The notes under the pieces are model-generated. The model did not search any database and had not been told where the DNA came from. It was given only the letters and a program-made list of their open reading frames with translations. Positions 32,387 through 57,435 of a DNA stretch of 64,000 bases are shown in pieces; the first letter of the stretch is position 1; every line of letters begins with the position of its first letter. The translations under genes were made by a program, and so were the position numbers. Source of the DNA: Candidatus Woesearchaeota archaeon. Lineage in GTDB: Archaea > Nanobdellota > Nanobdellia > Woesearchaeales > JACPJR01. The stretch is taken from assembly GCA_016187565.1 (NCBI GenBank), contig JACPJR010000010.1:68596-132595 (forward strand), in the 5' to 3' direction.

Positions 32387-32413
32387 AAAAGAAAAAAATG
32401 CGCGTCTCTGTGC

Positions 32414-32809: not shown

Positions 32810-32825
32810 AGTTTCACCTCAATCT

Positions 32826-32895: not shown

Positions 32896-32964
32896 CGTGC
32901 CAATAACACCATATTTCCATGCATGTAATAAATATGACTTACTGCCCGTGTTCTGGAGAAAATT

Positions 32965-33822: not shown

Positions 33823-33904
33823 ATGAAGACCTTTATGCTTTAAAAAACTTATGCATTAATGGTCTAAGAGGAGTTTTTGGGCGACTTTACATTTACTTCT
33901 CTAC

Positions 33905-34288: not shown

Positions 34289-34411
34289 CCATGTTTTTTC
34301 TATCTTTCTATCAGTAAAAGTATATGGGTGGCCAAGTTTTAATATTTTTGTATCGCAGATTCACAACAACCCCACACAACTCTTATAAAGGAAAGAAGCC
34401 TTCTTTAGAGT

Positions 34412-35842: not shown

Positions 35843-35849
35843 CATTGAA

Positions 35850-35947
35850 CTATAGGAAAAGACATTAATTTTCGTAATAATTTGTATGTCTTTTCCTAAT
35901 AAGCAAAGGACATAAAGTTACGGTTATTAGTGTCCTTTGCTATAGTG
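35850..35947. repeat. Right copy of the ~98-bp inverted repeat (partner 14563-14660)
   Basis: See the left copy. It contains the perfect 12-bp stem AGGAAAAGACAT/ATGTCTTTTCCT and the 10-bp stem GCAAAGGACA/TGTCCTTTGC. It ends ...gctatagtgg ~40 bp upstream of the VIT-family gene. Confidence 0.85.
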
Positions 35948-35986
35948 GATTAAAATGTTGAAATATTTATATAGGGCTAGTGTTTA

Positions 35987-36844
35987 TTGACGTCTATGGA
36001 TGTTATGTTGCAGGCCCAACGAAATGAGATCACTGAGTACCAGATCTATCACGCGTTAGCCAATAAAGTAAATGATTCTCATAATCGTAAGATCTTGGAG
36101 CGTATTGCAAAGGACGAACTCCGGCACTATCGCTTGTTAAAGAAATACACACATCAAGAGGTAAAACCAGATCGCTGGAGGGTAAACCAACACCTCTTGC
36201 TAGCATCCATTTTAGGAGTAACCTTTAGTTTACGATTTATGGAAAAAGGAGAAGTTTTTGCTCAGAAACTTTACCATACCCAGAAAACAGCGCCCTTTGA
36301 TGTGCTGCTTCTGGATGAGCAGAAACATGAGAAGGCCTTGATAGGCATGCTCCACGATCAGAGAATTGCCTATGCTGGTTCTATTGTGTTGGGTTTAAAT
36401 GATGCTTTAGTAGAACTTACCGGAGCACTTGCTGGCTTGAGTTTAGCCTTGGCAAATGGAAAGCTTGTTGCAATCATAGGTTCGATAACCGGATTTGCTG
36501 CAGCGCTTTCAATGGCAGCATCTGAGTACCTTTCCTCTAAAGAGGAAAAAGAAACTGAGAAAAAAGCGCTTACCGGAGCAATCTACACGGGTGTTGCTTA
36601 TCTTGTGACCGTAGCCTTACTGATTTTGCCCTTTCTCTTGCTTACCAATGTCATGGCAGCTATGGTTATCATGCTTTCTACAACTATAGCTATTATCGCT
36701 TTCTACACCTTTTACATAGCAACGGCAAAAGGAACAAGGTTTTGGCCGAGATTTGTTGAAATGAGTGCAATTTCACTTGGTGTTGCCCTCATCAGCTTCT
36801 TTATTGGTTGGCTAGTGCGTGCGTATATTGGTGTAGATGTTTAA
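35987..36844 (+). CDS. VIT1/CCC1-family membrane protein with N-terminal ferritin-like (rubrerythrin-like) domain
   Basis: The N-terminus EITEYQIYHALANK ... IAKDELRHY is a ferritin-like E...ExxH pair. The C-terminal ~5 TM helices are typical of the VIT family. The true start is possibly ATG 35996. Confidence 0.65.
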   Translation: MTSMDVMLQAQRNEITEYQIYHALANKVNDSHNRKILERIAKDELRHYRLLKKYTHQEVKPDRWRVNQHLLLASILGVTFSLRFMEKGEVFAQKLYHTQKTAPFDVLLLDEQKHEKALIGMLHDQRIAYAGSIVLGLNDALVELTGALAGLSLALANGKLVAIIGSITGFAAALSMAASEYLSSKEEKETEKKALTGAIYTGVAYLVTVALLILPFLLLTNVMAAMVIMLSTTIAIIAFYTFYIATAKGTRFWPRFVEMSAISLGVALISFFIGWLVRAYIGVDV

Positions 36845-36861
36845 TTATGGCAAAGAACATA

Positions 36862-36948
36862 TAGCCCCGCCCGGATTCGAACCAGGGTCACAAGGTCCAG
36901 AGCCTTGTATGATTGGCCTCCTTGATTTGGCCGCTACACTACGGGGCT
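36862..36948 (-). tRNA. tRNA (candidate tRNA-Gln, anticodon CUG) with an apparent ~14-nt non-canonical intron near the D-arm/anticodon-stem junction
   Basis: The minus strand reads AGCCCCG-TA-GTGT-AGCGGCCAA-ATCA-A-[GGAGGCCAATCATA]-CAAGG-CTCTGGA-CCTTG-TGAC-CCTGG-TTCGAAT-CCGGG-CGGGGCT-A. The A1:U72 acceptor stem is perfect, the T-loop is GTTCGAATC, and the 5-bp anticodon stem is perfect with U33 and purine-37. Removing the bracketed 14 nt gives a 73-nt canonical tRNA. The intron boundaries are my inference. Confidence 0.55.
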
Positions 36949-37111
36949 GTTCCTGAATCTTAAGGGTAGTTCATCTGCTTTTTAAAACTTTTTCTTATTT
37001 GATAGAAAGGTTTAAATAGAACGGCTCACTGTACAGTGTCAAATCTTAGCATAGAACTATGTATGAATTTATGTATGAATTGCCTATACGCGGGTAAGCG
37101 GGGGTTATATT

Positions 37112-37375
37112 ATGGCTGGAGATGAAAAAAAGTTTTCACGACAATTGTTGGGAAAAACAGTAGTCAGTAAAAGTGGAAAAAGGTTTGGCGAAGTTGGTGA
37201 TATTATCTTTGAAACACGCTCAGGAGAACTTATCCATCTTATTCTTTCAAATGCAACACCTTATACGGAAAAACTGGAACTTGAGAAAGACAGGGAAGGC
37301 CACATCCTTATCCCGTTCAGTGCAGTCATTGCCGTCGGTGATTTTCTCGTAGTTGCTGAGGAAGATATTATTTAG
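37112..37375 (+). CDS. PRC-barrel domain protein
   Basis: LLGKTVVSKSGKRFGEVGDIIFETRSGELIHLIL fits the PRC-barrel consensus. 87 aa. Confidence 0.55.
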   Translation: MAGDEKKFSRQLLGKTVVSKSGKRFGEVGDIIFETRSGELIHLILSNATPYTEKLELEKDREGHILIPFSAVIAVGDFLVVAEEDII

Positions 37376-37455
37376 CCACTCTCTCTTTTTGATGTTTTCC
37401 TTGGTGTTTTTGTGTAAACAAAACCTATATAAAGCATTCGCTATTTACCCTTTGT

Positions 37456-38436
37456 ATGGAATCTACCATCTGGACCGAGAAATATCGTCCAAGATTGTTT
37501 TCTCAGGTACGTGGACAAAAGGAAATCATTGCAAAGCTCGAAGCCTTTGTCAAACAGAAAAACTTGCCTCATTTGATGTTTGCTGGTAGTCCGGGTATTG
37601 GAAAAAGTACCTTAGCATTGGTTGTTGCACGCCAATTATTCGGTGAAACATGGCGGCAAAATTTCATTGAGTTGAATGCAAGTGACGAAAGAGGCATTGA
37701 TGTCATTCGAAGTAAGGTAAAGGATTTTGCACGTACTAAAGCGATGGGTGATGTTCCGTTTAAGATCATTTTTCTTGATGAATGTGATGCCTTGACCAGA
37801 GAGGCTCAGCAGGCATTGCGAAGAACCATGGAGAATTATACGACAACAACGCGTTTTATTCTTTCAGCAAACTATTCCAGTAAGATCATTGAACCCATCC
37901 AAAGCCGTTGTACGGTTTTTCGTTTTAAGCCTCTTGAAAAGAAAGAAATTTTTCACCTTATCGATCATATAGCAAAAGAGGAGCATCTCAAGATTGATGA
38001 GGCAACAAAAGAAGCGCTCTTTCTGGTTACTGAAGGAGATTGTCGACGAATGGAGAATATTTTGCAGAGCTGTGCTGCAGTTGCCCAACATATTACCGAA
38101 GAGATGATCTACTCATTAGCATCAGTGGCAAAGCCTAAAGAGCTCAAGCAAGTTCTTGATCTTGCCTTGGCCAACAAATTTATCGAGGCAAGGACAAAGC
38201 TTCTGGATGTGATGCTCAAGTACGGTTTGTCTGGTACTGATATCATTAAACAGATCCAACGTGAGGTCTGGAACTTGGCAATTGATGGTAGAACTATGGT
38301 TACGCTGATAGATAAGTGTGGCGATATTGAGTTTAGGATGACTGAGGGTTCTGACGAGTATGTACAGCTTGAGGCATTACTCGCTCATGTTGCCTTACTC
38401 GGTTCTGAAAATGCTGAGAAAGAAAAGGCAAAGTAA
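37456..38436 (+). CDS. rfcS: Replication factor C small subunit
   Basis: WTEKYRPRLFSQVRGQ is the RFC box II/III context. Walker A is GSPGIGKST, Walker B/DEAD-like is IIFLDECDAL, and SRC is sensor 1. Confidence 0.9.
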   Translation: MESTIWTEKYRPRLFSQVRGQKEIIAKLEAFVKQKNLPHLMFAGSPGIGKSTLALVVARQLFGETWRQNFIELNASDERGIDVIRSKVKDFARTKAMGDVPFKIIFLDECDALTREAQQALRRTMENYTTTTRFILSANYSSKIIEPIQSRCTVFRFKPLEKKEIFHLIDHIAKEEHLKIDEATKEALFLVTEGDCRRMENILQSCAAVAQHITEEMIYSLASVAKPKELKQVLDLALANKFIEARTKLLDVMLKYGLSGTDIIKQIQREVWNLAIDGRTMVTLIDKCGDIEFRMTEGSDEYVQLEALLAHVALLGSENAEKEKAK

Positions 38437-38705
38437 TGAAATTACCTGAAACTCCACCTCAACCTGGGGGAACATACTCTTTTCATTGGGATGCTTATCA
38501 TGATAAGGCACGTCCTGATGCCAATAGTTCGATGTCAGGAGTTGGTGATTTGAGTGTCCTTTGTGATCAAAGAGGACATCGATTTGTTTACGATCCTGTA
38601 AATGGATATGCACGTCTAACAGATTTGAAGGGAAAATCCTCTCTGGCTGACCACGAGAAACTAGAATTAACTCTTGATATAATCTGTCGGGAAGAACCTC
38701 ACTAG
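38436..38705 (+). CDS. Hypothetical small protein (start overlaps the rfcS stop, ATGA)
   Basis: An 89-aa ORF, translationally coupled to rfcS. No motif recognised. Confidence 0.35.
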   Translation: MKLPETPPQPGGTYSFHWDAYHDKARPDANSSMSGVGDLSVLCDQRGHRFVYDPVNGYARLTDLKGKSSLADHEKLELTLDIICREEPH

Positions 38706-38734
38706 TAAACGTAAAAAAAGAAATCACTGTTCTC

Positions 38735-39703
38735 TTAACTATCGATATGCTTAACCATTAATTCCTGGACAATGTGTTGATTATAGTCGTAGGTAAGCCC
38801 AATGTTGACCTGTTTTTCATAATCACCGAGATCATCTATCTCCTGATTGCAGGTAATTGAGCGCTCTCCGCTATATAATTGGAAGTCTCCTTCATAGCCA
38901 CTGCCAACTGCTCTTCCATTCCTGAGACCACTACATTTGAGGTCTCCGTCACTTAAGCCAGTATCTATGGTTACATGGATCCAATCTCGTTTGCTGTAGC
39001 TTTCATCACAGGAGCTGCCAGTTTGATGGGGAGATCCTTCTCCTGCATGGGTAACGGTAAATATAAAACTCACTTTATTCTTGCTTGCTACATTTTCTCT
39101 AAACGCACTGACCTTTACCGGAGCACCAGAACTTTCTGCGATCTTTTCTTCGTTTGGATTACAGAATGCAGCAGCCTTTGTCGTTCCTAAAAGATCCTCA
39201 AGCACACAGATCTTTGAGTTTGCAAAAGTACCATAACTGTAGCATGCATCTGCTTTGATATTGAAGGTAACCTGGCCGCTGACATTTCCCTGATACTGGA
39301 GGTCGTCAAAGTTAAAATTAAGAATACTTCCTGGAATAATATTGCCTTCAACATCTTTATGTCTGCCACGCATATCCTCTTCGCTGCTTGTATTTAAGTC
39401 ATCCTGAGTTTTTCCAAAATCGCTTGGATCTATGCCGGTAATTTGTATGTTCACTTTTTCGATAGGAACGTCAAATTCACCCATATTCTCAACACGGAGA
39501 TTAATACCAAACGGGAAATCGTGATCAAAAACCTCTTGTGGAGGAGCTCCTTCAAGGAAATTCATATCAAGACCTTCACTGCCTCCGATAAATGAGCCCA
39601 ATACCTGGTTATTATTATCCTCTTGGGTGGTACATCCAACAAGTAAAATAAGAAGACTCAACAATGCAATAATGATAGATCTGGATACCATTCTCGATAC
39701 CAT
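38735..39703 (-). CDS. Secreted lipoprotein-like protein, paralogue family A (1 of 3)
   Basis: An N-terminal signal with an LVGC lipobox-like motif. It shares CNPNEEKIAESSGAPVKVSAF and a tail LTYDYNQHI with the two upstream paralogues. Confidence 0.55.
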   Translation of the reverse strand: MVSRMVSRSIIIALLSLLILLVGCTTQEDNNNQVLGSFIGGSEGLDMNFLEGAPPQEVFDHDFPFGINLRVENMGEFDVPIEKVNIQITGIDPSDFGKTQDDLNTSSEEDMRGRHKDVEGNIIPGSILNFNFDDLQYQGNVSGQVTFNIKADACYSYGTFANSKICVLEDLLGTTKAAAFCNPNEEKIAESSGAPVKVSAFRENVASKNKVSFIFTVTHAGEGSPHQTGSSCDESYSKRDWIHVTIDTGLSDGDLKCSGLRNGRAVGSGYEGDFQLYSGERSITCNQEIDDLGDYEKQVNIGLTYDYNQHIVQELMVKHIDS

Positions 39704-39770
39704 GGTAAAAATCCTCCTCTTTTGTTCTCAAGAGATGGGGTGTTGCCTCTATATAAATCTTTTGCTTTAC

Positions 39771-40784
39771 TTAACTCATCCGGGTTAACTCAGTGTTGAT
39801 AATGCGGATATCTTTTTTGATAGAGTCCATATACCCATATTCTAGGCGAACATTCAGCGCAGTGGTGAAGGCAGCAGTATTACCTTCACCCAAATAAAAT
39901 TTACAGTAAATGATACCTTCGCCATCGACGAGCGTGAGCGGAGAAGCCGGTTGGCAGGGACTCATAGGCGTTATTAGCGTACCAAGTCTTATATCATCAT
40001 AATAATAATGGACTTTATCCAATCCTTGGTACTTGAGCTCAAAGGGGCATGTTCCTGTAATCGGTGAAACACCACTCGATCTCCGTACACTGCCCACGTC
40101 AACAACTCGGCCGGTACCTACATTTTTAATTTTGATCTTTACTAACGTTGAACCTTGAAATGAGTCAACAGAAATACCGGTTACTGCAACCGGAGCTCCT
40201 TGGCCTCCAGTGGTTGCAACATCCTTAACCTTACATGCCTCATTCTCCATGATCTTTGTTGGATCCGGATCAACACAGAGCGAAATACTGGCATCCGTAG
40301 CATATTTGTAGCATGCAGTTGCCACAATTGTTGGTTTGTATTCGTCAATTTTTCCAAGGACCATACCCCCCGTGGTGTAAAATTTATCGCAAATACTGTA
40401 TCCGCCTTCAGGATTGAATAGGCTCTTTCCTTCGAGTTGCCCATTATTGAGACAACTAAAGATATCGCTACTTGTCGTGAACAGAGGAATGAGTATGGGA
40501 TCAAATCCCGAGAGATAAAGAATGCCATCATCAGGAGTTCGAATAGGTTCAGTCCCTTTATTTCGCACTTCAATCATGAATTGGAGATCTTGATCACTAA
40601 AGATGTTAGCAGGTGGATTGTCCTTCACGAATCGTAAGTCCAGTCCGACACTGCCGGTATGCACATCATACGTACGCTTATCATCCTCGTTTCCTTTGCG
40701 CTTAAAGGCAGTACATCCGGTAAGACTAATAATCATAATGATCAGGAGAAGATACATGAACATCACTCTTTTTTTCTTATTCAT
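39771..40784 (-). CDS. Secreted lipoprotein-like protein, paralogue family A (2 of 3)
   Basis: Signal ...SLTGC. The conserved block is ACKVKDVATTGGQGAPVAVTGISV. The C-terminus reads LEYGYMDSIKKDIRI. Confidence 0.55.
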   Translation of the reverse strand: MNKKKRVMFMYLLLIIMIISLTGCTAFKRKGNEDDKRTYDVHTGSVGLDLRFVKDNPPANIFSDQDLQFMIEVRNKGTEPIRTPDDGILYLSGFDPILIPLFTTSSDIFSCLNNGQLEGKSLFNPEGGYSICDKFYTTGGMVLGKIDEYKPTIVATACYKYATDASISLCVDPDPTKIMENEACKVKDVATTGGQGAPVAVTGISVDSFQGSTLVKIKIKNVGTGRVVDVGSVRRSSGVSPITGTCPFELKYQGLDKVHYYYDDIRLGTLITPMSPCQPASPLTLVDGEGIIYCKFYLGEGNTAAFTTALNVRLEYGYMDSIKKDIRIINTELTRMS

Positions 40785-41079
40785 GGCCGTGCCTTTTTTT
40801 GCTTTTTGGTTATTTGCTGTCTTTAAGACGGTTATGAGTATATAAGGATTTCGATTCGTGATGTGGTTTGCCAGTCCATAAAGAAACCAGAATCCATTTT
40901 ATTTTTTATTAGTAGACATTACTTTAAGTTTACTTTAACTTACTTTTTTGACTTAAATGAGCTAGTGAAGTTTAAGTATGTTCGAAAAATAGGCTCGTAT
41001 AGGGGAGCGTATTACATGATGGAGGAGAAGAAGTAAACTACGAATCTCCAGAAAATAAAACAAGCTGAGATTCTGTACG

Positions 41080-42405
41080 TTAGGATGAGGGCTCGCAGCA
41101 GATAATGTTTGCTGGGCCAGGACAGAGTCCGGTAAAGAATGGTGGGCTACAGGTACTCTCATCGATACATTGATAACTACTCCCTTTTTGCTCTTCACAC
41201 AAACTCTTTTCCTTGCTGCAACAAACTTCATCAGTAGTTGGGCAGGTCTTTCCCGTAATTTCTGTGCCATACGCCTTTGCACACACGTTAATATCTTTTT
41301 TTTGACAGTATCCGTCAGGAGGCTGGCAAGTCGTACCACTTTCAGGAGGGTTTTCATCAGGGTTTTGCTCTGGAGGTTGATCTGGGATCCATGTTGGTTT
41401 ATGTTTTGCTTTTATTGTTAGCTCTATCTCTTCAGAAACATACCCGTAGGAGAGTGTTATGGAAAGTGGCGTGACAAAACTTCCCTGATCCTTACGGATG
41501 GTCTTGGTACAGTAGGCCTTGGAGGTTGTCGGATCATCATAGGATTGAATGATGTTTGTGCAGTCGATAATCTCGCCAGAAAGCTCTATGGTTGCCTGTA
41601 CCTTGTCAAGCCCAGTTCTCGGAGCAATCGTCGTACAGGCGCTCGCGTACTGGTCAATACCGGTTACGAGGCCCTTACCTTCATTCTTAAAGTGAACGAC
41701 GAATTGTGCCTCAAACTCATTAGGATTTCCTGTGCTTACGATGGTTTCTTCAACCTTAGTTACGGCCACCGGTGCGCCCTGCCCTCCAGAGATAGCAACA
41801 TCCTTGACTTGGCATGTTGCCTTATCCTTGTTGGCATAGTCATACATAAATGGATCGATGCAAACCTCCACACTTCCTTGCGTGGTGTATGGATAACAGA
41901 CCTTTGCCTTGAAGAGAAAATCCTTCTCGACATCAGTCGGAATGCCTGTATTTCGAACGTCAAAAATTTCAAGCTGATAGCCCTCGGTCTGACTAAAGCG
42001 ATCCTTGCCTTTAACATTGATTATGGTGTTTTTCATGGTTTGTTGTTGGACAATTTCCATGTAATCAGAGAAACGCATAAGGGCAATAGAGCCATTGGTT
42101 ACCTCGGTGTAGCCTCTGTTGCTAATCTCAATACCTATCTGAAAAGGAGTAGGCTCTTCTGGCGTTCCTGCCCATATTTCTCTGGGAGTGATCTCATCCA
42201 GAAATGTGATGACTAAACCATCCCTTCCTGTCTTTTGCTCGAGTACTCTAATACTCGTATCGCCTTGGTTATCACGCTTTAGCCGCTGACAGCCAACAAC
42301 GAGGAGGACTATGAAAACTACGGTGAGGAGTAACAACATCTGAACTCTTCTTTTTTTCTTCATTCCTGACGACGTCTTCATGATGGTTATACGTTTATTA
42401 TCCAA
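41080..42405 (-). CDS. Secreted lipoprotein-like protein, paralogue family A (3 of 3) with extra C-terminal Cys-rich module
   Basis: Signal ...LLVVGC. The conserved block is CQVKDVAISGGQGAPVAVTKV. LSYGYVSEEIELTI is followed by a ~90-aa region with 16 Cys. Confidence 0.55.
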   Translation of the reverse strand: MDNKRITIMKTSSGMKKKRRVQMLLLLTVVFIVLLVVGCQRLKRDNQGDTSIRVLEQKTGRDGLVITFLDEITPREIWAGTPEEPTPFQIGIEISNRGYTEVTNGSIALMRFSDYMEIVQQQTMKNTIINVKGKDRFSQTEGYQLEIFDVRNTGIPTDVEKDFLFKAKVCYPYTTQGSVEVCIDPFMYDYANKDKATCQVKDVAISGGQGAPVAVTKVEETIVSTGNPNEFEAQFVVHFKNEGKGLVTGIDQYASACTTIAPRTGLDKVQATIELSGEIIDCTNIIQSYDDPTTSKAYCTKTIRKDQGSFVTPLSITLSYGYVSEEIELTIKAKHKPTWIPDQPPEQNPDENPPESGTTCQPPDGYCQKKDINVCAKAYGTEITGKTCPTTDEVCCSKEKSLCEEQKGSSYQCIDESTCSPPFFTGLCPGPANIICCEPSS

Positions 42406-42411
42406 ACCAGA

Positions 42412-45400
42412 TTAGCTAAAGCTTGGCATTTCTTTGGTGCTGAAGTCTTCATAATAATACATGACGCGTGCAACATGGGTACCTACTTCCTTTACTTTAT
42501 TCTTACGCATGGAATCATCCCATGCTTTTGTTTTACCACTAGAGGTAGTGAAGGTTCCGCTATAGCCAGGAAACTGAAGCAAAAATTCTGGTGTAATCTC
42601 ATGGTAGACTCGATCCCAGGTCGGATCTGCTTCACGTGTTTCAAGAATTGCCGTGGTAATAACTTTTTCACCAATATTGTAGGCAGCTACTGCAAATTTA
42701 TCCTGGTCTTTGTAGCCTACGTAACTCTTTCGCAATTTTGCAAGATAATTAACGGTTGCCTGGATGCTTCGATGGGGTACTGCTCGATTGTCTCGTCCCT
42801 TGACAAGCTCACATTGCTCATCGCAAGGCTCGCATGCTCCTCCACAACCCCTACTACTATCGTCACTCCTTGCACAGAGAAGATACGGTGCTTTTTGATA
42901 TTCACATGCAGTACTATAACAGAACTGTCCTAAGCCATAACAGCCTGTTGGCGAGCCTGCTTTGTAATTAAAGGCGGATTCCTGCGCAATTAGCCCAGCG
43001 ACTAAATCAGCACCTTTTTTTTCACTGGCATAACTTCCATCTTGAGAGACATAATCAAGGATGAGGTCGTAGTACACTCTATTGTCAGCAGTAGGATCTT
43101 GCGTTGTTATTGCTCGTTCCCACATACTCCCAGAGGCTGGAATGCCAATGGTTGCTTTTTCGGTGTCATAGAGCTCGGCATCAGGAACATCATGGGCAAC
43201 AATACTGGCAGAGGATTCTACTTCATAATCATAGCTAAGCGAAACATCAATAATTTCGCTGTTTAAATTATTCTGGTTTGCTAAAGCAGGTTGTCCTTGG
43301 ACTTCCAGCGTACAGTAATCTAATGATTTCTGTTTCCCGTATGCTATCTCTTCGAGACTTTTCTGGCTATACCGTTGCAATGATTCTTTCTTCATAGGGT
43401 AGGTGCATGTTTTTTGTTGGCAGATTTTGCTTGCTGGATCTAAGAGCTGGCAGTTTGTCGCTGGTACAAGCCATGATGGGATGGTAACACTGCCTGAGGT
43501 AAGGGCAAGAAGCTTTCCATTCGGAACCATATTCTCCACAGCAATCTTGAGCTTTACCAAGGTACTGTTTTTTACACCAACGACTACCCGTGGATCAGGA
43601 ACAACAATGAGCTTGATAAAGCCAGGATCTGATTTTGATTCTACCTTTCCTTTTTTGTAATCATTTTCAATAACTCCGGGAAATAATTGTTGGTATTTGT
43701 AAACCTCAGCAGCAACAAGATCCTCTTCTGTTTGATGCCGGGTAATACGTTTGTTGTACTCTTCTTCAGCGGTATTAAATTCAGGATCAGTTGTAAAACG
43801 TGTTTTCCACTCATCCAAGGCAGTTTGCTCAATAAAATAAAGCACGTATTTACTCTCCACCTTGAGTTGTCCGTCAGTCATGCGTGCATTGAAGGTAAGT
43901 TTATTAGCCCCATTTTCGAGACCAAGAGTTTGTTTCGGAAAGGTACAAATAACTACGGTGTTCTCCTTAGTTGCTGGTGGATTAGTGAATCCTTTTGGTA
44001 CGGAGACCTGCCATTCGGTGGGGTCGGCAAAAGGAGTATTTTCAGTATAGATATCCTCAACCTTACAACCAAAGCTGAAGAGCACATCTTGCGTAACGCT
44101 CACGACCGGATGGAAATCAACAAACACCGGATCTCCCTGGTAGACATCTATCGAGTAGCGAGGTGCAATAATGTCGACGGTAACTGCTTCTTCTTTTGTG
44201 GTGTCAATACCTCCGCTCAGTAACGGCTCTTGGCTTTTATTTTCCTTAGGCGGTTTGCCAAAGTTTTCGCATGCAGTGGCGTCTGCAGAAAAAAGTCCGC
44301 CAATACAGGAAACAGTGCTGCTCCAGAACAAACCAAGCTGGCTCTTGCTTACGGTTCCTTGGGCAATGAGCTGTTGTTGTTCATCAGGAAGATCAACATT
44401 TCCCATCCAGCCTTGGAATGCGCCTTGGAATCCCGGAGTAAAGAGCAAGAACACGACATAAGCAAACATATAGGTCGCCCAGATTTTTGTGGAGGGATTT
44501 TCCTTGTCCTTGAGCACCGTATCCCGGTAGAGGGCATCTATGATGATGTACCATGCCCAGAGCCAGGGGAATGCATAAATGGGTGCAATGAATATATTGG
44601 CTTCAATGCCCTTGACAAGGTTACTCAAGAGGCTTTGAATGTAAAACGTTGATAAGAGAAATCCCACAATGATAAAGGGTATTGATTTGAAGTCTCGTTG
44701 GTAGAAATAAAAAAACAAAAGCAAGGCAAAGATGAGATTGATCACCGGGCTGTATAGAAAAATAGTTACGTTTAGAAGATGAACCACCAGTGCTATGACC
44801 ACAAATAACCCAAAGGAACGAACAGCCCCGGTAATACCACTCTTCGCCAATCCAAAGCCACCTTTAATCCCTCCCCATGCTGTTTTTCCCCTTCCCTTCC
44901 AATTTTCTTTTTTTTCGGTTTTTTCCTTGTTCTCTTCATCACTTCTTTCTTCGTCCTTTTTTTTGATTTCGTCTTCAACATGCTGTTGTCTTGTGAGAAG
45001 CTCAATTTCCTTGAGTTTATCTTCTGGATTCGTTGAATTTCGTAATGCTTCTCGCTGTTCTTGAATCAAGGCAAGTTGCTGTTGTAATAGGCTCTTTTCT
45101 TGCTCTTCCTCTTGTTTATTTCTTTGGAACGCATCTTTAATCATACTACCCATACCAGCAAATGCCATTCTTTTATCACTGAAACTGCTTTCTGCAGATG
45201 CAGCGGTTTTAAGGAGATGGCCAAAGGCTTGTATCGAGAGATGCTTTTGTCGCGCATATTCTACCTTCTCCTGAGCATAGGCTCTCGATCTTTCTGCTAC
45301 TGCTCGGGCAGCGAATTTTCCTGTAGCATAGGCAGCCTTTCCCACATCTCGCGCACCATAATAACCCATGCCGGTTTCATGCATTCGCTGGGCTGCAGCA

Positions 45401-45906
45401 ACATCCCCTCCAAGGTGAGTCGCAAGCCTTCGCTGAATCTCAAGACCGTTTTTTATCTGTTTTGCTTTCCACTGTTTATACTCTTCAAGAATTTGGCCGA
45501 GAACACGCTGAAGTTCCTCATGACTCGTTTCTTCAGGAAGTGCGTTTTCAACTGCTCTGACGATCTCCCGTACATCAGCTTCAGGGATTTGGTGATCTGT
45601 GGTAATGACTTCGGAAAGCCCGACGATCAGCTCGCTTTTATTGACGGTAACTTTGCTTGATGGTGGAGACTCTTGCGCCCTCGCCTCTGCTGCCATTGCT
45701 CTTGCTATTCCTCGGGAATCTTCGGCAGAAAGAGTTCCTCCCTGTGCAGCTCTTCTGAGATCTGCATCAAATGCCGCATGGTCGTCTAACTTTGCTCGTG
45801 CCCTTGCGGTGAGTTCTGTAGTGTTATCATCACCTAAAACCCTTCTCTTGGTAACAACGTTGGGGTCATCCATCGTACGCTCTTTTTTCTTAGAGTTATG
45901 CTGCAC
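42412..45906 (-). CDS. Giant (1164 aa) membrane protein: N-terminal cytoplasmic coiled-coil/charged region, multi-TM segment, large extracytoplasmic region ending in a lytic-transglycosylase (SLT/lysozyme-like) domain
   Basis: The C-terminus LVAGLIAQESAFNYKAGSPTGCYGLGQF matches the SLT E-S-x-F-N...A-x-S...G-x-x-G-L-x-Q catalytic motif. The central segment has about 6 TM helices. The N-terminal 330 aa is rich in A/E/K/R and locally GC-rich. Confidence 0.6.
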   Translation of the reverse strand: MQHNSKKKERTMDDPNVVTKRRVLGDDNTTELTARARAKLDDHAAFDADLRRAAQGGTLSAEDSRGIARAMAAEARAQESPPSSKVTVNKSELIVGLSEVITTDHQIPEADVREIVRAVENALPEETSHEELQRVLGQILEEYKQWKAKQIKNGLEIQRRLATHLGGDVAAAQRMHETGMGYYGARDVGKAAYATGKFAARAVAERSRAYAQEKVEYARQKHLSIQAFGHLLKTAASAESSFSDKRMAFAGMGSMIKDAFQRNKQEEEQEKSLLQQQLALIQEQREALRNSTNPEDKLKEIELLTRQQHVEDEIKKKDEERSDEENKEKTEKKENWKGRGKTAWGGIKGGFGLAKSGITGAVRSFGLFVVIALVVHLLNVTIFLYSPVINLIFALLLFFYFYQRDFKSIPFIIVGFLLSTFYIQSLLSNLVKGIEANIFIAPIYAFPWLWAWYIIIDALYRDTVLKDKENPSTKIWATYMFAYVVFLLFTPGFQGAFQGWMGNVDLPDEQQQLIAQGTVSKSQLGLFWSSTVSCIGGLFSADATACENFGKPPKENKSQEPLLSGGIDTTKEEAVTVDIIAPRYSIDVYQGDPVFVDFHPVVSVTQDVLFSFGCKVEDIYTENTPFADPTEWQVSVPKGFTNPPATKENTVVICTFPKQTLGLENGANKLTFNARMTDGQLKVESKYVLYFIEQTALDEWKTRFTTDPEFNTAEEEYNKRITRHQTEEDLVAAEVYKYQQLFPGVIENDYKKGKVESKSDPGFIKLIVVPDPRVVVGVKNSTLVKLKIAVENMVPNGKLLALTSGSVTIPSWLVPATNCQLLDPASKICQQKTCTYPMKKESLQRYSQKSLEEIAYGKQKSLDYCTLEVQGQPALANQNNLNSEIIDVSLSYDYEVESSASIVAHDVPDAELYDTEKATIGIPASGSMWERAITTQDPTADNRVYYDLILDYVSQDGSYASEKKGADLVAGLIAQESAFNYKAGSPTGCYGLGQFCYSTACEYQKAPYLLCARSDDSSRGCGGACEPCDEQCELVKGRDNRAVPHRSIQATVNYLAKLRKSYVGYKDQDKFAVAAYNIGEKVITTAILETREADPTWDRVYHEITPEFLLQFPGYSGTFTTSSGKTKAWDDSMRKNKVKEVGTHVARVMYYYEDFSTKEMPSFS

Positions 45907-46018
45907 AAAAGTTTATAAATTTATGCATCTCATGGAGGAAGTATAATGCACGAAAGTATGGATTTTTGTGCATTATGGTATTTGGTGTGATATTTCACGT
46001 ATACAAACCGTTGAGAAT

Positions 46019-47233
46019 TCACTCATCATTATAGACATAGACAACCATACGGGGGACATCTAAGCTAATACCGTCTGGCTCGATCTTGATCCAGTTATTC
46101 TCCTGTCGATCAACGTAATTGGTGATAGAGCGTTCATAGAAAGGGTCTCTGGTGTCAATGTAGAAGAGCCTGCCATTCACACTAATGCGGGCAGCATGGT
46201 CCTGATTATCATCAGGAAATTCCAAACTCATGTTTACTTCCAAAAATCCATCTCTGACATCCTCAAATTCTTCAGTGCTCAAGGAAAAATAAAACAAGGG
46301 ATAACGGAGCTCTTTTAAGTGAGTGGTTATTTTAACTTGATCGATAAGATAGGATCCACGTTCAGTACGGAAACGGATACTGTTCTCTCCCACGTCCAGA
46401 TATGCCGGAGAAAATTCAAGAGGACGACTGGCACCACAATCGGGAATGCCGCTGAAGACTTCCTGATTATTGATGTAGGCGTGCAGCACACCAACCTGCC
46501 CGGTTGTACACTCAGCTGAAAATCGTAAGGTTGCTTTGTCCATGTTGTACTGCTCTGTTGCTGAAATAAGGAAAATATTTCGTGCTTCCTGGCGTGAAAG
46601 ATCGGTAATGTCACCAGTTACTTTGATATTTTCAAGCAGATATTCGTTTGTTTTCCAGAATTTCCAGCCAACGCTATCAACGGTAAACTCTAAGAGGTTG
46701 TTCCGTTGAAGGTATTCTTTCGGTAAGCTTATGGGGGCTGGATTGACACTTGTTAGTTCGTTACTTAAGAGCGTGTACCCATTGAGTTTAATAGTTAGAA
46801 AGCCTTGTGCACGTTTGACAGTAAAGGAGAGAAGGACATTATCAGTATTTTCAGGATCATCAATGGCAAAGCTCAGATTTGCAAATTTTTGATCTAAAAC
46901 TCCATTCTTCACATAAACACTGTTAAATTCTTTGATGCTATTGGCCTCTGTTCGCGTGGTGACAAAAACTGAGGGTACGGTATGTTCATATTCTTTAAAT
47001 TTAAGGTAGTCTAGTCTTCCGACTCGTTCATCAAGCACAAGACGTTCATAGTCTGGCGTGAATTCACCCTCTCCTTCGCCTCCACTTGGCTCGTCGCCGA
47101 AGAGTTCTGCCCGTTCCTTACCTGGTAAGAAGACAACATACAGAACAATGAGGAGGGTAATAATAAGAATGAGAACCGCTGCCTGTGAACCGCTTGGTGG
47201 TTGTGTCACTGCCCCTTTTTTTGTAGCAAGCAT
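46019..47233 (-). CDS. Secreted / membrane-anchored hypothetical protein (first gene of the minus-strand surface cluster)
   Basis: An N-terminal hydrophobic anchor (AAVLILIITLLIVLYVVFL), then a 370-aa beta-rich ectodomain. Confidence 0.5.
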   Translation of the reverse strand: MLATKKGAVTQPPSGSQAAVLILIITLLIVLYVVFLPGKERAELFGDEPSGGEGEGEFTPDYERLVLDERVGRLDYLKFKEYEHTVPSVFVTTRTEANSIKEFNSVYVKNGVLDQKFANLSFAIDDPENTDNVLLSFTVKRAQGFLTIKLNGYTLLSNELTSVNPAPISLPKEYLQRNNLLEFTVDSVGWKFWKTNEYLLENIKVTGDITDLSRQEARNIFLISATEQYNMDKATLRFSAECTTGQVGVLHAYINNQEVFSGIPDCGASRPLEFSPAYLDVGENSIRFRTERGSYLIDQVKITTHLKELRYPLFYFSLSTEEFEDVRDGFLEVNMSLEFPDDNQDHAARISVNGRLFYIDTRDPFYERSITNYVDRQENNWIKIEPDGISLDVPRMVVYVYNDE

Positions 47234-47284
47234 CGTAACAAAGTTTAAATAGTATTATTATAAAAATGTTTCGTAAATATAATA

Positions 47285-47640
47285 GTAAGCCTTTTATCGT
47301 CACAGCGCCATTGTAGGCGGTGCGACGGTCGTTTCTGCGGAAACGCCCTACGAGTCACCCCGACGGGGTCATCCCCCGACTCGCCGCACGCCCATGGGCG
47401 CTGACGCAACGGGGCTTGCCCCCCAAACTTTACCGAAGTTTGATCAAAAGGGTGCAACATAAAGTTGCACTTCGTGGCCTTCGTGTTGCCTGGATAGCCA
47501 CGGCGAAGAGCTTCATGCTCTTCCTTGCGTGTCAACTGAGCGTAACCAGTTGCGGGGTGTGCGTAGGATTGCTCCTTGAGCAATCCGTCAGCCGCCATAG
47601 TGGTGGCGTGCGTTTTGTGAATTGTGTTTTCAATGAAAAC
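47285..47640. ncRNA. GC-rich, palindrome-dense intergenic element; candidate structured ncRNA of unknown class (strand undetermined)
   Basis: About 60% GC in a ~38% GC context. At least 10 consecutive perfect or near-perfect hairpins are visible: GCG-GAAA-CGC, CGAGTC...GACTCG enclosing GGGG-TCAT-CCCC, GCGCCCATGGGCGC, GTGCAAC-ATAAA-GTTGCAC, GAAGAGC-TTCAT-GCTCTTC, CAACTG-AGCGTAAC-CAGTTG, and GGATTGC-TCCTTGA-GCAATCC. The ORFs across it are R-rich GC artefacts. Confidence 0.3.
47432..47501. repeat. Copy 2 of the ~55-70-bp repeated hairpin element (copy 1 at 32826-32895), embedded in the GC-rich element
   Basis: aagtttgatcaaaagggtgcaacataaagttgcacttcgtggccttcgtgttg. Confidence 0.75.
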
Positions 47641-47658
47641 CCTTAACTGGTGCCTCCT

Positions 47659-48723
47659 ATGCAGATTATCCATAAAGATTTGAAACATGGCAAAGTAAAG
47701 CTTAAAGTTACGGTTCTTGATGACCTGTGGTACCTCAGCCATTTAATTGATCCTGGTGACGAGATTAGTGGTAGGACAGAGCGAAAAATAAAATTAGGAA
47801 CTGGAGAGGAACGCCAGGTAAAAATTATCAAAAAATGGGTGACGCTTACTATACATGCAGCGAAGGTAGAATTTCATCCTTCTGCAACCATCTTACGGGT
47901 ATCGGGAAAAATCCTTGAAGGACCAGAGGATGTTCCCCGCGGAAGTTATCATACGATCAACGTTGAGGAACAGAGTATCGTTGTCATTCAAAAGGAAAAA
48001 TGGTTAACATACCAGATTGAACGCTTGGGTGAGGCAACAAAAGCAAAACATCCTAAAATACTCATCCTTGTTCTTGATCGCGAAGAGGCATTGTTTGCCC
48101 TTATGAAACCCTCAGGGTACCAATTATTGAGCAGCATTAAGGGAGAGGTCCAACGGAAACGTATTTCAGAACAGAAGAAAGGAAGTTTTTATGCTGATCT
48201 TCTGAAACTGATCGTGGAATATGATACCCGGTACAAGCTTGATAAGATTATTATTGGCAGTCCTGCGTTCTGGAAAGAAGACCTTCTCAAAGAATTAAAA
48301 GATTCTGAATGTAGAAAAAAGATTATTCTTGCAACCTGCAGTGATGCTGGCGAGCATGGTATCCAAGAGGTGCTCAAGAGGCCAGAAACGCAACATGCAC
48401 TTCATGAGGATCGTATCTCCAAAGAGATGACTCTTGTCGAGCAGCTTCTCCAAGAGATTTCCAAAGATAAACTTGCGGCGTACGGTATTACTGAGACAGC
48501 AGCTGCAGTTGATGCAGGAGCAGTACAAACATTATTGATTACTGATTCTTTTATTCAGCACGCACGCCAAAAAGGAACCTATGAAGCAATTGATCAATTA
48601 CTGAAAATGACCGATGCTGCCAAAGGAGAGATTATGATGGTGAGTAACGACCATGAAGGTGGCAAGAAACTGGATGGCTTGGGAGGAATTGCAGCATTGC
48701 TCCGATGGAAGTTGGCATACTGA
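47659..48723 (+). CDS. pelA: Pelota (Dom34-like) mRNA surveillance / ribosome rescue factor
   Basis: The N-terminus MQIIHKDLKHGKVKLKVTVLDDLWYLSHLIDPGDEISGRTER matches the Pelota N-domain consensus. The C-terminal eRF1-like domains are present. ATG 47659 is preferred over the GTG at 47650. Confidence 0.85.
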   Translation: MQIIHKDLKHGKVKLKVTVLDDLWYLSHLIDPGDEISGRTERKIKLGTGEERQVKIIKKWVTLTIHAAKVEFHPSATILRVSGKILEGPEDVPRGSYHTINVEEQSIVVIQKEKWLTYQIERLGEATKAKHPKILILVLDREEALFALMKPSGYQLLSSIKGEVQRKRISEQKKGSFYADLLKLIVEYDTRYKLDKIIIGSPAFWKEDLLKELKDSECRKKIILATCSDAGEHGIQEVLKRPETQHALHEDRISKEMTLVEQLLQEISKDKLAAYGITETAAAVDAGAVQTLLITDSFIQHARQKGTYEAIDQLLKMTDAAKGEIMMVSNDHEGGKKLDGLGGIAALLRWKLAY

Positions 48724-48809
48724 CCTTATGTTGGTTGCCTTAATCTTTCGTCTTAATCGTTAAGTTTATTAAGGACAATAATTGTGATATTTAATATACG
48801 CAGATTGCT

Positions 48810-51800
48810 ATGGAACTCACACACAAAAAAAGGGGTTGGACCAGAGAAACTTCTCAAAGATTTAACGGGATTGTACGGCTATCTTTCTTGGTGACGATAT
48901 TTTTAATATTTTCTTCACTTTTCTTTATCTTTTCGATGCCTTCGGTTAAGGCAGCATCATGTTTTAGCGAAGATAGTTGTTATGATGGATGTTCTGGGTA
49001 TAGTTTGAACGACTGTTACTTTGATGCTGACCACGATTGTCAGATAGGATCCTCTGATAATTGCAAGGATTGCTCTTGTAGTTGTGGAGGCTACCCTAAT
49101 ACAGGAAGCTGTGCTACTGAAGATGTAGTTTTTGGTCCGACATATTATTCGTGCGGGGATAGTTTTGATAACGATGGTGATGGAGATGAAGACTGTGCAG
49201 ACGACGACTGTACAGACAAAGAATGTGGCGGGGGAAATGTCTGTTTTGAAGGATCCTGTGTAGGTGGGCTTGGCCTCGTGTGTACATGGTACAATGGTGT
49301 TACTCCTCTTGCGGATTGCAATGGAGTGAATTGGTGTAACACAACTTACACGCTCACTGACCCCTTTCAATTCATGTTTCCATTTTTCAATACTACCCCA
49401 TCTGCGCCAGTTCCTTCATGTATTATTAGTGCATCAGGAAGAGCTGATAATTTGCAGGGTATTTACATGAATGTTACCCTTAGTGGGGATTGTACTGGAG
49501 ATAACTGTCCTACTGAAGGAGATCTGACTGAACCATGGTGGGAACCCTTTCCCCCATCCCTTACTGCACGAACTCATACGTATGATTTGAGTGATGAAGA
49601 TGGTGTACCAGAACATACAAAACCATTTGATTGTTCTCTTCCTGCCTCGGTAAATGTTACTGAACAACCTGGCTATTTTACTAATCCGAATTGTTGTGGT
49701 GATGGTACGAACGTTTCTGATGCCCTTGCTGATCAAGGTATGATTGCGAATATTTCGAATATTCCTATCTCTCTTTGTGTTCGTCAAGATGTTGATCAGA
49801 ATGCGCTTCAGGATCAAGATACGTATGTAGGGGGTACAGGATGTCCTTATCCATTAGGCAGAAATCCTGGCATTGAGACGCAAGGTCCATGGTTATGGGA
49901 GCAAGCATCGGCGCTACAAAACCTGTGGAAGATCTATACAATAAATCTTAATGAATCTTGCTGGCAGATTCCCAAACCGCAGGGGGCATTTGACCGTCCT
50001 GTTTATGATGTTATAGGATGGGGTGCTACAAATAATCCTCAATGGATTGCATGCGATCCTTTTGGAGCATTTAATCTGAGCAAGAGTCAGCGTGAAGGAC
50101 AGGCTCCGGGTTTAGATTTGGGAAATGCAAATTCAGGAATTACCGTAACACCACCTCCTGATCTGCCGGAATCTGGAGGGGGTAATGGGGGTGTTGTCCC
50201 CGATGCTGGATTTTTTGAGGATCTTGGTATCCATATACAATTCCCTAAAAAAACATACGATGAGGACAAAAGTGCATGGATTTCCTGTCTTCCTGACGCA
50301 GGATCTGGAAGGAATCTTACACGAATTGTTTGTGAAGGCAGTGGTTTTGAAGGTGATGCTATCCAAGCAAACAGTTCCTTCTTTACGCATAATGAAACCA
50401 GTCAAGGAACGGGAACTTTCCATCGAGATGAGCTGTTGAATAACAAAGAATTTAGCAATTTACCAATATATTTTAATGGTGACTTACAAAAGGGATATCA
50501 TAATCTTACCCTCCAGACAAACGGAACAAATAGTAGGGCCTATGTTTTTGCAAGTCAATATCTTGTATTAAGCGATACTACGGAAGACGAGCCTGTTGGG
50601 TCTGATACTGATAGGGTCATCTGCTACGATGAAGGTAATCGTGGATCCTGGGCAGTGTGTTGCGGTTACTCTTATGCAGATTGTCCAACAGAAAATAATG
50701 GGTTATGGGATGTGAATGCTAACCCTAATCCTAAAGTTAAGCGATCCGGTGAGGTTCTGGGGTCTGTTATTGATTATTATAACTCTGATGATCCGTCAGC
50801 AAATTACGTCTTGAAGTTATGGATTGCTACGGCAAGAATAGACCAAGAGTCTGGGTTTATCTATGGACTCATAAATGATGTTGCTCACTCGTTCAACAAC
50901 AATCCTAATGATGATTATATGGATGCGCCTCTTCGCATTACTAACTGGAAAAATTATTCTTTCCTTGAGTTTGATATTGCTTTTACAACCACTGATCTAT
51001 GGAACATTACTATTTTTGATAGTGCTGCTTATCCTATTAGTGATGACATTTTAACTCAAGAATCACAACTTAATCTCCTGCAATTTAATATCTCTTATCC
51101 ATCAAAAGCCCCTCTTTTTAATCGTAGAATCATTGACTACTCTACTGATGGGAATGAGCTCTATGAATGGCACCATATTAAAATTCCACTTCCACCATCA
51201 CTTAAGCAAGAGGACATCTCCCTTATTATGTTTGTGGGTGATAGAGAGGCAATCAAGAATGAAGTACATTATCGTTGGGGAAAGCTTGACGTATTTAATA
51301 TTGGAGGAAATACAGCAGCAGTTTTTGGTTTAGATCGGATGTATCTTTCTCGGGATAGTATGAGTTACACTAATAACACGTTCTGTAGCGGAGGTGGCCG
51401 ATGGATTGATGACCTTGATGAAAGCGCCTTAGCTTGTGATAATACCGCTAAAACTGCATGGACAGGCTCTCAGTGTTGCGGAGATGATCCGCATGAATAC
51501 TATGCAGATCCAGCGGGCTTACATGCCTGTTGGGATGGAAGGATTGTACCACACGACACACGGATTATGCAGGTTGACTACACCGTTACCGGGTCCTCAA
51601 CAGAGTCTCATGCCTGTAAAGGATACAATTCCTTTATCAGTGCGACTGCGGAAGAAGATGCAGAGGAATTTGTGAATGCCTGTTTGTATCCGATGCCGAG
51701 AACAGGTAGAGCTCTTTATACTGTAGCTAATCCTTACACGGAACTTTACAATGTATCTTTCTTTGCCGCAGAAAATGGCGCTCAATATTTTAGTCAAGCA

Positions 51801-55123: not shown

Positions 55124-55153
55124 TGAACGTTCTAACGTTCAGAAATAGCAAAA
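55124..55153. repeat. 30-bp repeat containing the imperfect palindrome GAACGTTCTAACGTTC (second copy 57219-57249)
   Basis: gaacgttctaacgttcagaaatagcaaaaa is present at both sites. In the second copy it directly abuts the end of the 275-bp repeat. In the first copy it lies 220 bp upstream of that repeat. Confidence 0.75.
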
Positions 55154-55375
55154 AGTGAAGCAGGAATAAGGATTTTACAATATGAACAGAGACCGTAATC
55201 TTTTTTGCTGAAACTCCTTGCTGATCATAGTTGATTTGTCACCCTGTCACCAAAGTATACGCCAAGCTGGTTTACCATCTGACTCCAGTCTCTGACTGTC
55301 TGCCGTTTCTCATATGAGTCGATAACTACCAGGTACAGCAGCTTGAACAAATCATCTTCTATTTTTAGAAGCTCA

Positions 55376-55650
55376 AAATAATGGCTCCATGACAATTGGT
55401 GAGACAGTGTCTCACTTTTTTGGTATTTCAGATAAAACAGCCTCATAGATATATCAGATTGCTTTTGCTAAACCCTTTCCCATACATCAGTTTCAAGTCT
55501 TTAGAAAGGTTTTCTAAGAGTGCTGAGAATTAATCAGTGCAGAATAATAATTTTTTCTTTTCATAAACCCCACCGAATAAAGAAACACTTGCACATACTT
55601 ATAAATATTCTGTTTACTGGCGGTGTATGGGAAAGTAATTCTGTAATCCG
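55376..55650. repeat. Direct repeat A (~275 bp) flanking the MNT-HEPN cassette
   Basis: About 97% identical to 56941-57219. The only indel is a 6-bp gcaagg insertion in copy B. Confidence 0.85.
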
Positions 55651-56940: not shown

Positions 56941-57219
56941 AAAATAATGGATCCATGACAATTGGTGAGACAGTGTCTCACTTTTTTGGTATTTCAGATA
57001 AAACAGCCTCATAGATATATCAGATTGCTTTTGCTAAACCCTTTCCCATACATCAGTTTCAAGTCTTTAGAAAGGTTTTCTAAGAGTGCTGAGAATTAAT
57101 CAGTGCAGAATAATAATTTTTTCTTTTCATAAACCCCACCGAATAAAGAAACACTTGCACATACTTATAAATATTCTGTTTACTGGCGGTGTATGGGAGC
57201 AAGGTAATTCTGTAATCCG
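56941..57219. repeat. Direct repeat B (~279 bp) flanking the MNT-HEPN cassette
   Basis: Matches 55376-55650. It is followed directly by the 30-bp palindromic repeat. Confidence 0.85.
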
Positions 57220-57435
57220 AACGTTCTAACGTTCAGAAATAGCAAAAAATGAACGTTTCGATCGAAACCTTTATAACTAAGAATAGGCTTTAACGGTTTG
57301 TGAACAGGGAAAGATTTCGATAATAGTTTCCCTCTACATTGTACATGGATGCCGCAGCAGTTAACGAGTACCTTGTTGATTTTCAGAAGAAGGGACTGAG
57401 AGGAGCAAAGGAAAAAAGATTCTCTCTGTTCCCCT

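Follow-up and report, generated by a model that had tools for sequence, protein, structure and literature searches.

Structured RNAs that are GC-rich and intergenic are known as Hgc RNAs from AT-rich hyperthermophilic archaea, and the non-coding RNAs of DPANN archaea are little explored. Intergenic hairpins also occur as modular palindromic repeats, i.e., the BOX elements of Streptococcus, REP/BIME clusters, Correia/NEMIS elements and MITEs. Screening for GC content and IGR length has yielded GC-rich intergenic candidates for structured RNAs in AT-rich genomes, such as the "orphan" large non-coding RNAs of the Breaker laboratory (e.g. PMC6429828, PMC11109978). REPs have been reported in archaea (PMC12306157), and MITEs have likewise been described (PMC11602168).

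The element analysed here lies in a window of 64 kb, by which we mean the whole stretch of 64,000 nucleotides under study. Like the candidates from GC/IGR screens, it is an intergenic GC island in an AT-rich genome with a strongly stable predicted fold and without an Rfam family. Such candidates are, however, accepted only with covarying homologues, and the present element is absent from the closest relative, with no homologue retrieved. With BOX, REP, Correia and MITE sequences it shares its intergenic position, the modular hairpins, a location that varies between close relatives, a sub-module that recurs, breaks in short-read assemblies and a possible co-transcription with the downstream gene. 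In contrast to these repeats, we found only one full and one partial copy, all its hairpins are different, and it is far GC-richer than the genome. Terminal repeats and a target duplication are not clear, no cognate transposase or RAYT was seen, and a candidate promoter and a U-tract frame the structure like a gene.

A GC-rich, hairpin-dense element upstream of pelota

The element, approximately 310 nt long, is hosted by a 425-nt spacer between two divergent genes. To its left, a hypothetical membrane-anchored protein of 404 aa without a Pfam domain is encoded on the - strand (46019-47233); downstream of the element follows pelota, coding for a ribosome-rescue factor (47659-48723, +). This pelota protein is identical to NCBI MBI2548342.1, its relatives stem from Woesearchaeota or Nanoarchaeota MAGs, and the window is part of a Candidatus Woesearchaeota (DPANN) MAG. 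A previous sequence-only reading of this DNA had described a GC-rich island between divergent genes, and our analysis bears this out. GC content is 59.9% in 47301-47612 and 56.2% in 47285-47640, compared with 40.3% in the window, where the element is the sole 150-nt stretch with at least 56% GC.

The same reading had counted at least ten consecutive palindromes. With stems of >=6 bp and loops of 3-9 nt as the criteria for a perfect hairpin, the element contained seven, while 1000 dinucleotide shuffles had a mean of 0.56 and a maximum of 4; outside the element, no other 356-nt stretch of the window exceeded four. The total rises above ten once near-perfect or long-loop hairpins are counted, i.e., ACCCCGACGGGGT, CGCCCATGGGCG, GGGGCTTGCCCC, CGTGGC...GCCACG and, at 47351-47383, the CGAGTC...GACTCG stem already named in the first reading. 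The minimum free energy (MFE) was -155.5 kcal/mol for the + strand (z = -6.3) and -153.3 kcal/mol for the - strand (z = -6.6), and no shuffle matched either value. On the + strand the ensemble was well defined, with pair probabilities of 0.85-1.0 for most helices. These data confirm that the GC-rich, hairpin-dense element is real and highly structured, and we regard it as a solid, statistically striking and unclassified structural feature.

One point of the first reading to be corrected is that it saw no plausible ORF crossing the region. A mechanical ORF call yields two that traverse it, one of 108 aa (+) and one of 165 aa (-). Both are without a homologue (no match among 5.8 billion proteins for the former, none among 1.84 billion representatives for the latter), and a protein-coding gene was rejected on these grounds. 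Long ORFs are expected through GC-rich palindromic DNA.

Predicted fold of the + strand

In the predicted + strand fold, a terminal helix P1 of about 23 bp joins both ends of the element and opens into a four-way junction of P1, H1, P2 and H10, with a multiloop on top of P2. P1 was assigned from the MFE structure and the pair probabilities: its 5' strand occupies 47301-47328 (segments 47301-03, 47306-14, 47316-21 and 47324-28; pair probabilities 0.84-1.00), its 3' strand 47585-47610. The helix contains three G·U pairs and is lost in the MFE fold of the - strand. H1 (47330-47345, P = 0.98) has a 6-bp stem and a C(UGCG)G tetraloop of the UNCG type, a loop that belongs to a special stable class on the + strand only. 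A GAAA-tetraloop hairpin had been proposed earlier, and GCG-GAAA-CGC is indeed present, but as a weaker alternative to the C(UGCG)G hairpin at 47330-47345.

The long-range helix P2 pairs 47347-47362 with 47553-47567 (P = 0.85-0.95); for this region a local alternative fold exists, consisting of CGAGTC/GACTCG plus ACCCC-GAC-GGGGT. Six branches, short and mostly perfect hairpins, emerge from the multiloop. The first of them is the most GC-rich sub-domain (47363-47423), with three G4 and three C4-6 runs, competing pairings (P 0.46-0.88) and a CGCC/GGCG hairpin at 47389-47400. H5 (47424-47442), H6 (47450-47472) and H7 (47473-47502) follow and form, together with the palindrome TTTGATCAAA, a module termed M1 (47421-47506, P 0.92-0.99). 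The last two branches are H8 (47503-47528; GAAGAGC-UUCAU-GCUCUUC, P = 0.99) and H9 (47533-47552; CAACUG-AGCGUAAC-CAGUUG, P = 0.86). H10 (47566-47586, P = 0.97), the remaining arm of the four-way junction, is a 9-bp perfect stem with a CUU loop.

Comparison with known RNA families

Rfam 15 cmscan at the gathering threshold, run on both strands of the whole window, reported only a tRNA at 36862-36948. With permissive filters (E <=10), no relevant family was detected on either strand of 47150-47750 (601 nt), where two matches, SNORD10 with 15.7 bits and Guanidine-II with 13.2 bits, were meaningless. The families covered include RNaseP_arch, RNaseP-T, Archaea_SRP, group I/II introns and GOLLD/ROOL/OLE/HEARO. 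Also in 26 related loci, nothing relevant was found at the gathering threshold. The cmscan on both strands, which had been suggested as a check, hence assigned no known family. Direct reading of both strands showed neither the CR-I (GGAAAGUCC-like) nor the CR-V (ACAGAA...GGCUUA-like) motif of RNase P RNA. This agrees with the earlier motif search, which had found no convincing hallmarks of RNase P and SRP RNA and had left the class open.

A divergent housekeeping RNA, namely an RNase P RNA or SRP RNA too far from the Rfam models to be recognised, might nevertheless be considered, because a size of ~310 nt, GC enrichment and paired 5' and 3' ends are typical of these RNAs. Archaeal RNase P RNA (RF00373, RF02357) and archaeal SRP RNA (RF01857) are similar to the element in length, GC enrichment, terminal helix and multi-branch fold. 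A leader of ~9 nt on the tRNA of the window moreover calls for RNase P activity, and the RNP form of RNase P has been reported to be in use by DPANN archaea (PMC6380272), which also counts in favour of such an RNA. The element differs, however, from both families in matching no covariance model even at E = 10 in the 601 nt scanned around it, in missing universal motifs (CR-I, CR-V and those of SRP helix 8) and in being unconserved in the sister genome. An essential RNA should align in a sister of 80% identity, as the tRNA region does, but nothing is found there.

Neither architecture accommodates a hairpin between P2 and P1 together with a six-branch loop. In RNase P RNA, the 3' strand of P4 directly precedes that of P2; this RNA was rejected because its conserved motifs are absent and because the 21-nt hairpin H10 sits between P2 and the 3' strand of P1. 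In SRP RNA, helix 5 is rod-like, and helix 8 is marked by a GNAR loop and by asymmetric loops that are conserved. The element is predicted to fold into a multi-branch "flower" instead of a rod, helix-8 motifs are absent, and no model matched, so that this family was rejected as well. A housekeeping RNA in disguise thus appears hardly credible.

Guide RNAs of the C/D or H/ACA type were discarded, as direct reading showed neither a UGAUGA box nor a K-turn-like GA/GA bulge, none of the hairpins is followed by ACA, and Rfam gave no match. Archaeal replication origins have an AT-rich unwinding element flanked by repeated ORB boxes, near orc1/cdc6. An origin was rejected too, since the region is GC-rich and has no repeated box, and since orc1/cdc6 is missing among its neighbours; the ~30 window ORFs scanned likewise included no Orc1. 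On inspection, we saw no BHB splicing motif in the terminal helix, and no K-turns, ORB boxes or attC-like R''/R' sites.

Absence of the element from the closest relative

The searchable collections held one close relative, a 45-kb Logan contig (SRR22387810) with protein identities of 86% for pelota and 92% for HtpX. Window and sister genome are syntenic over 19 kb at ~80% nucleotide identity, and the 34 kb of sister DNA retrieved aligned with window positions 30000-49000 at 78-84% identity, including the tRNA region and several spacers. The promoter block of the 404-aa gene (47234-47272) is 100% identical to the sister sequence L027, and identity ends exactly at 47272. Past this point the sister is unrelated until the pelota start codon, which leaves an alignment gap at 47273-47654. 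At the site of the element, the sister spacer measures just 181 nt and includes a perfect 21-bp hairpin of its own. The spacer 5' of pelota seems to have received hairpin DNA repeatedly. L013, a more distant relative, has this divergent gene pair too, separated by ~60 nt.

The sister hairpin upstream of pelota (L027 5862-5915) is a perfect 21-bp inverted repeat, AGCGATTCTTTATTCTTCCTA ... TAGGAAGAATAAAGAATCGCT, unrelated to the element and followed by a short direct repeat, CTGTGCGAGAG.

No homologue of the element was found at the syntenic site or anywhere in the 34 kb of sister syntenic DNA, and neither a GC island nor BLAST similarity was seen upstream of pelota in 24 Woesearchaeota/Nanoarchaeota pelota loci and the sister contig. 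The sequence-only reading had stated that a lack of conservation in relatives would speak against an RNA, and this is in part what we observed, as the element is absent from the closest relative at ~80% nucleotide identity. Because identity stops at 47272 and the sister spacer is unrelated, the alignments indicate a lineage-specific gain or replacement in a hairpin-tolerant spacer and not a conserved core RNA at this position. All three alignment gaps that we examined (32360-32965, 35790-35958 and 47273-47654) contain a hairpin element.

Long structured 5' leaders, either riboswitch-like or protein-binding, are similar to the element in that it lies on the pelota strand directly upstream of the gene, with pelota having no promoter box of its own. 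In contrast to such leaders it is not conserved with the gene, the sequence upstream of the sister pelota is short and unrelated, and no known aptamer matched. A conserved cis-regulatory pelota leader was rejected, since neither the sister nor any of 22 more distant Woesearchaeota loci has the element 5' of pelota.

Our comparisons had very low power overall. The JGI metagenome collection and the GTDB representative genomes do not contain this organism, and a 20-mer scan missed even the window itself. The JGI pattern scan accordingly is a weak negative, its single chance match being a bacterial terminator hairpin. Six pattern scans of IMG/VR gave nothing relevant, one 14-base pattern there being too short and yielding chance matches only, and five exact 20-22-mers had no match. 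BLAST against phage and plasmid collections returned no match either.

These searches bear on the possibility that a GC-richer piece of foreign DNA, from a host, a co-resident organism, a plasmid or a virus, was recently captured in the spacer without an adapted function. A composition far from that of the genome and the absence in the sister are in agreement with such a capture, and so are the reproducible de Bruijn graph breaks described below, if the core is common to another genome of the community. The phage and plasmid collections and the five exact 20-22-mers in IMG/VR, however, provided no source, and neither open frame has a homologue at the protein level. Moreover, extreme hairpin density and the fit of promoter, helix and U-tract are unexpected for a random fragment. 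We consider a captured foreign fragment decidedly unlikely.

A duplicated three-hairpin module and recurrent assembly breaks

One hairpin of the element had been noted to belong to a repeat shared with 32.8 kb. The repeat is present, but it spans three hairpins (~85 nt) and not one. Its paralogous copy, M3 (32817-32903, +; 109.7 bits with model R1), lies between htpX and a glyoxalase/VOC-family gene. M1 (47421-47506) is 94% identical to it over the central 53 nt, identity decaying outward, and loops and linkers are nearly the same. In H7, the copies differ by one compensatory double change, which replaces U-A by C-G, and by one G-C pair that has become G·U, a pair possible on the + strand only. 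This is slim evidence of structure conservation and equally compatible with a recent duplication. In the 32.8-kb copy, H5 contains a mismatch, and its loop is AT-rich and also serves as TATA box for the VOC gene. Both the VOC gene and the module are absent at this site in the sister genome.

A covariance model built from the two copies detected no third true copy, neither within the window nor across related loci totalling 209 kb. The 64-kb window contains one full copy of the element and one internal copy of 85 nt. The module model also matched the - strand at 47469-47555 with 27.5 bits. Such a pseudo-dyad was rejected, because its sequence alignment was no better than that of shuffles; the match reflects three hairpins in a row and a shared palindromic H7 stem, not homology. 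Internal direct repeats were not detected in the element (no self-similarity scoring >=20), and neither the TTTGATCAAA linker nor the conserved H7 loop had targets within the window.

Logan contigs (k = 31) of the same organism from several runs were otherwise 100% identical to the window, but none of them bridged the central 148 nt of the element. All six left-hand contigs ended at or before 47414, all three right-hand contigs started at 47563, and ends at exactly these two positions occurred in at least three runs. Elsewhere, at the 32.8-kb locus, contig ends were mostly scattered among runs and a few recurred; the one recurrent end there that could be linked to a feature, a right-hand end at 35877, lies inside a 98-nt repeat of the genome. 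By analogy to this known repeat, the genome or community may contain further copies of the core 47385-47592. Other possible causes are a polymorphism of 47415-47562 or a systematic gap in coverage due to the hairpins. A simple inversion bounded by inverted repeats was rejected as cause of the breaks, since the sequences next to 47414 and 47563 do not form inverted repeats, and a deletion between two CGGGG repeats does not fit the coordinates.

The element may be palindromic DNA, a non-autonomous MITE-like or REP/BOX-like composite that landed in a permissive spacer between divergent promoters and whose transcript, if any, would be incidental. Presence in one genome and absence from its sister, with a sharp left boundary at 47272, argue for such an origin, as does the partial second copy in another spacer that varies in the sister. 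The genome contains another small hairpin repeat (98 nt, 98% identity) that is missing from the sister at 35.9 kb, and the recurrent contig ends at 47414 and 47563 suggest that the core 47385-47592 is repeated elsewhere. Perfect Watson-Crick stems and equally good folding of both strands would also be in agreement with palindromic DNA. P1 might represent imperfect terminal inverted repeats with CGT on either side (47298-47300 and 47611-47613), as a target-site duplication might leave; this 3-bp flank is weak evidence, and three bases could be chance.

Several observations oppose this origin. The 64-kb window shows the element in full only once; its second copy is an internal piece that lacks the ends. 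The strands 47301-47328 and 47585-47610 are complementary only with G·T pairs and bulges, and a repeat search reported no DNA inverted repeat; G·T pairs in "terminal repeats" are sensible for RNA, not for a transposase site. At 60% GC, the element is far from the 40% of the genome, whose clear repeat family is AT-rich. The ~30 window ORFs scanned include no transposase, integrase or reverse transcriptase. All hairpins differ, unlike in REP/BIME arrays. A REP/BIME cluster was in fact rejected on this ground, as the hairpins share no sequence while the usual array consists of copies of the same palindrome, with a RAYT in the genome. Altogether, MITE-like or REP-like DNA is a serious candidate and the main alternative to an RNA unit, yet we regard it as rather doubtful. 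If the element were selfish palindromic DNA, small hairpin repeats would be a main source of differences between sister Woesearchaeota genomes, given that 3/3 examined alignment gaps carry them, and the recurrent assembly breaks in these MAGs would be explained.

The sequence-only reading had also pointed out that the palindromes could mark a protein-binding or recombination locus. They would then be operators for dimeric regulators of both divergent genes, or recombinase or attC-like sites. In favour of such a function at the DNA level, the stems are perfect Watson-Crick palindromes, e.g. TTTGATCAAA, CGCCCATGGGCG and GTGCAAC-N5-GTTGCAC, and the - strand folds nearly as well as the + strand. 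Furthermore, the 32.8-kb module directly precedes the VOC gene's TATA box, where activators or repressors typically bind. Yet the ~10 palindromes are all different and have no motif in common, and no recombinase is encoded nearby. The element lies outside the conserved promoter block of the 404-aa gene and is missing in the sister despite conserved flanking genes and promoter. Helices that depend on G·U pairs are meaningless in double-stranded DNA, and a simple inversion was rejected, as stated above for 47414 and 47563. A role as a DNA-level locus is very unlikely in our view.

Promoters and a possible transcription unit

The 404-aa gene is preceded by a 39-nt BRE/TATA promoter block of the leaderless type with the box TTTTTATAATAA (47234-47272, -), which forms the left edge of the variable region; the distance of this box to the gene is that seen for other window genes. 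On the opposite strand, a candidate BRE/TATA box of the element (CGTAAATATAATAG, 47272-47285, +) resembles the window's own promoter boxes: AAATATAATAG (47275-47285) is similar to CATATAAATAG upstream of gene 17707, to TTATAAATAC and to TTTATATAG. The candidate box ends 22 nt 5' of P1, and in leaderless window genes the box ends 20-22 nt before the ATG. Two T4 tracts (47613-47616 and 47627-47630, +), the first starting 3 nt past P1 and the second 11 nt further, were flagged as a terminator-like site and might be weak archaeal termination signals, as read from the sequence. T4 tracts are weak terminators. A small AT-rich perfect hairpin (47626-47640, +) lies just 5' of the ribosome-binding region of pelota. 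Our promoter and terminator assignments are consensus-level guesses only.

Within its 60 upstream nucleotides, pelota has no such promoter box, and we hence infer that the gene is at least partly read through from the promoter of the element. The + strand appears to be the better RNA candidate, as it is favoured by the G·U pairs of P1, the UNCG loop of H1, the spacing of the box, the T4 tract and the G·U change in H7.

From these features we may tentatively propose an accessory, possibly repeat-derived structured RNA unit on the + strand, with a promoter of its own and doubling as leader of pelota; we hold this to be the likeliest of the readings considered and quite possible, if still somewhat short of probable. 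The unit's own TATA box, at the base of the terminal helix, would initiate transcription, and the + strand unit would yield an RNA of ~310 nt, roughly 47305-47616. The two U4 tracts after the helix would end only part of the transcripts, and the remainder would continue into pelota, itself without a recognisable promoter. The element could thereby act both as a stable structured RNA and as a 5' leader that supplies pelota expression. It would have entered this intergenic slot, by gain or replacement, after divergence from the sister species, in which the slot carries a different hairpin. Its building material would at least partly be a hairpin module present elsewhere in the genome, and its origin most probably repetitive or mobile hairpin DNA. 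Such an RNA unit overlaps with the MITE/REP explanation. Transcription, the RNA ends, read-through into pelota and any RNA function are all points that we infer from the DNA.

Some findings speak against an RNA unit. The - strand folds nearly as well, and the local stems are perfect Watson-Crick helices, as expected for DNA palindromes or very young structures. No homologue was found at the syntenic site or in anything searched, and structure conservation amounts to one compensatory pair. The breaks at 47414 and 47563 suggest a repeat or polymorphism and fit selfish DNA as well as an RNA gene. The sequence-only reading had proposed an uncharacterised structured RNA. The structure and the lack of an Rfam family are borne out, and the + strand features fit an RNA, but the closest relative shows no conservation; an uncharacterised structured RNA is plausible but unproven.

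In a bolder version of the RNA unit, which we think unlikely, the element would be the first seen member of an undescribed class of large (~310 nt) structured non-coding RNAs in DPANN archaea. A small unit with its own promoter, mobile or able to duplicate, would carry it, and it would be transcribed together with pelota. Such an RNA might bind proteins as a scaffold or regulate the gene downstream of it, and the three-hairpin module would be its reusable functional core. This small genome has little non-coding DNA, and a GC-rich RNA of 310 nt whose fold is well defined would be a promising candidate for a new class. If the element is an RNA, one might also learn from it how RNA genes or leaders recruit hairpin modules.

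Other repeats and variable sites in the window

The AT-rich 98-nt repeat occurs at 14567-14664 and 35847-35944 in opposite orientation and with 98% identity, both copies lying in spacers of same-direction genes. Each forms two long hairpins with stems of 11 and 13 bp and loops of 18-20 nt, and the repeat looks like a small MITE-like or terminator-like family. The 35.9-kb copy falls into a gap of the sister alignment (35790-35958), and Logan contigs end inside it. At the 5' end of the pelota coding region, 30 nt (47703-47732) are 80% identical to 35913-35942 of this repeat (E ~0.03), which probably is chance.

Between htpX and a class II aminoacyl-tRNA synthetase gene, 32360-32965 corresponds to L157 10859-13713 of the sister and is a variable islet. 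Here it contains the VOC/glyoxalase-family gene and the hairpin module, in the sister a 431-aa ORF, a PIN-domain protein and a methyltransferase.

The tRNA at 36862-36948 (-) scored 50 bits with Rfam, was missed by ARAGORN and has an 18-nt insertion in its D-arm region, which may be a non-canonical intron. The homologous sister region aligns at ~82%, and no tRNA was called there at the Rfam gathering threshold.

A perfect direct repeat of 258 nt (55375-55632 and 56941-57198) brackets a nucleotidyltransferase gene (MNT-like, Pfam NTP_transf_2) and an adjacent 166-aa ORF, which possibly form a toxin-antitoxin cassette. A second repeat of 35 nt is found nearby in different order (55125-55159 and 57219-57253), and the region of the 258-nt repeat may be a recent duplication or a mobile cassette.
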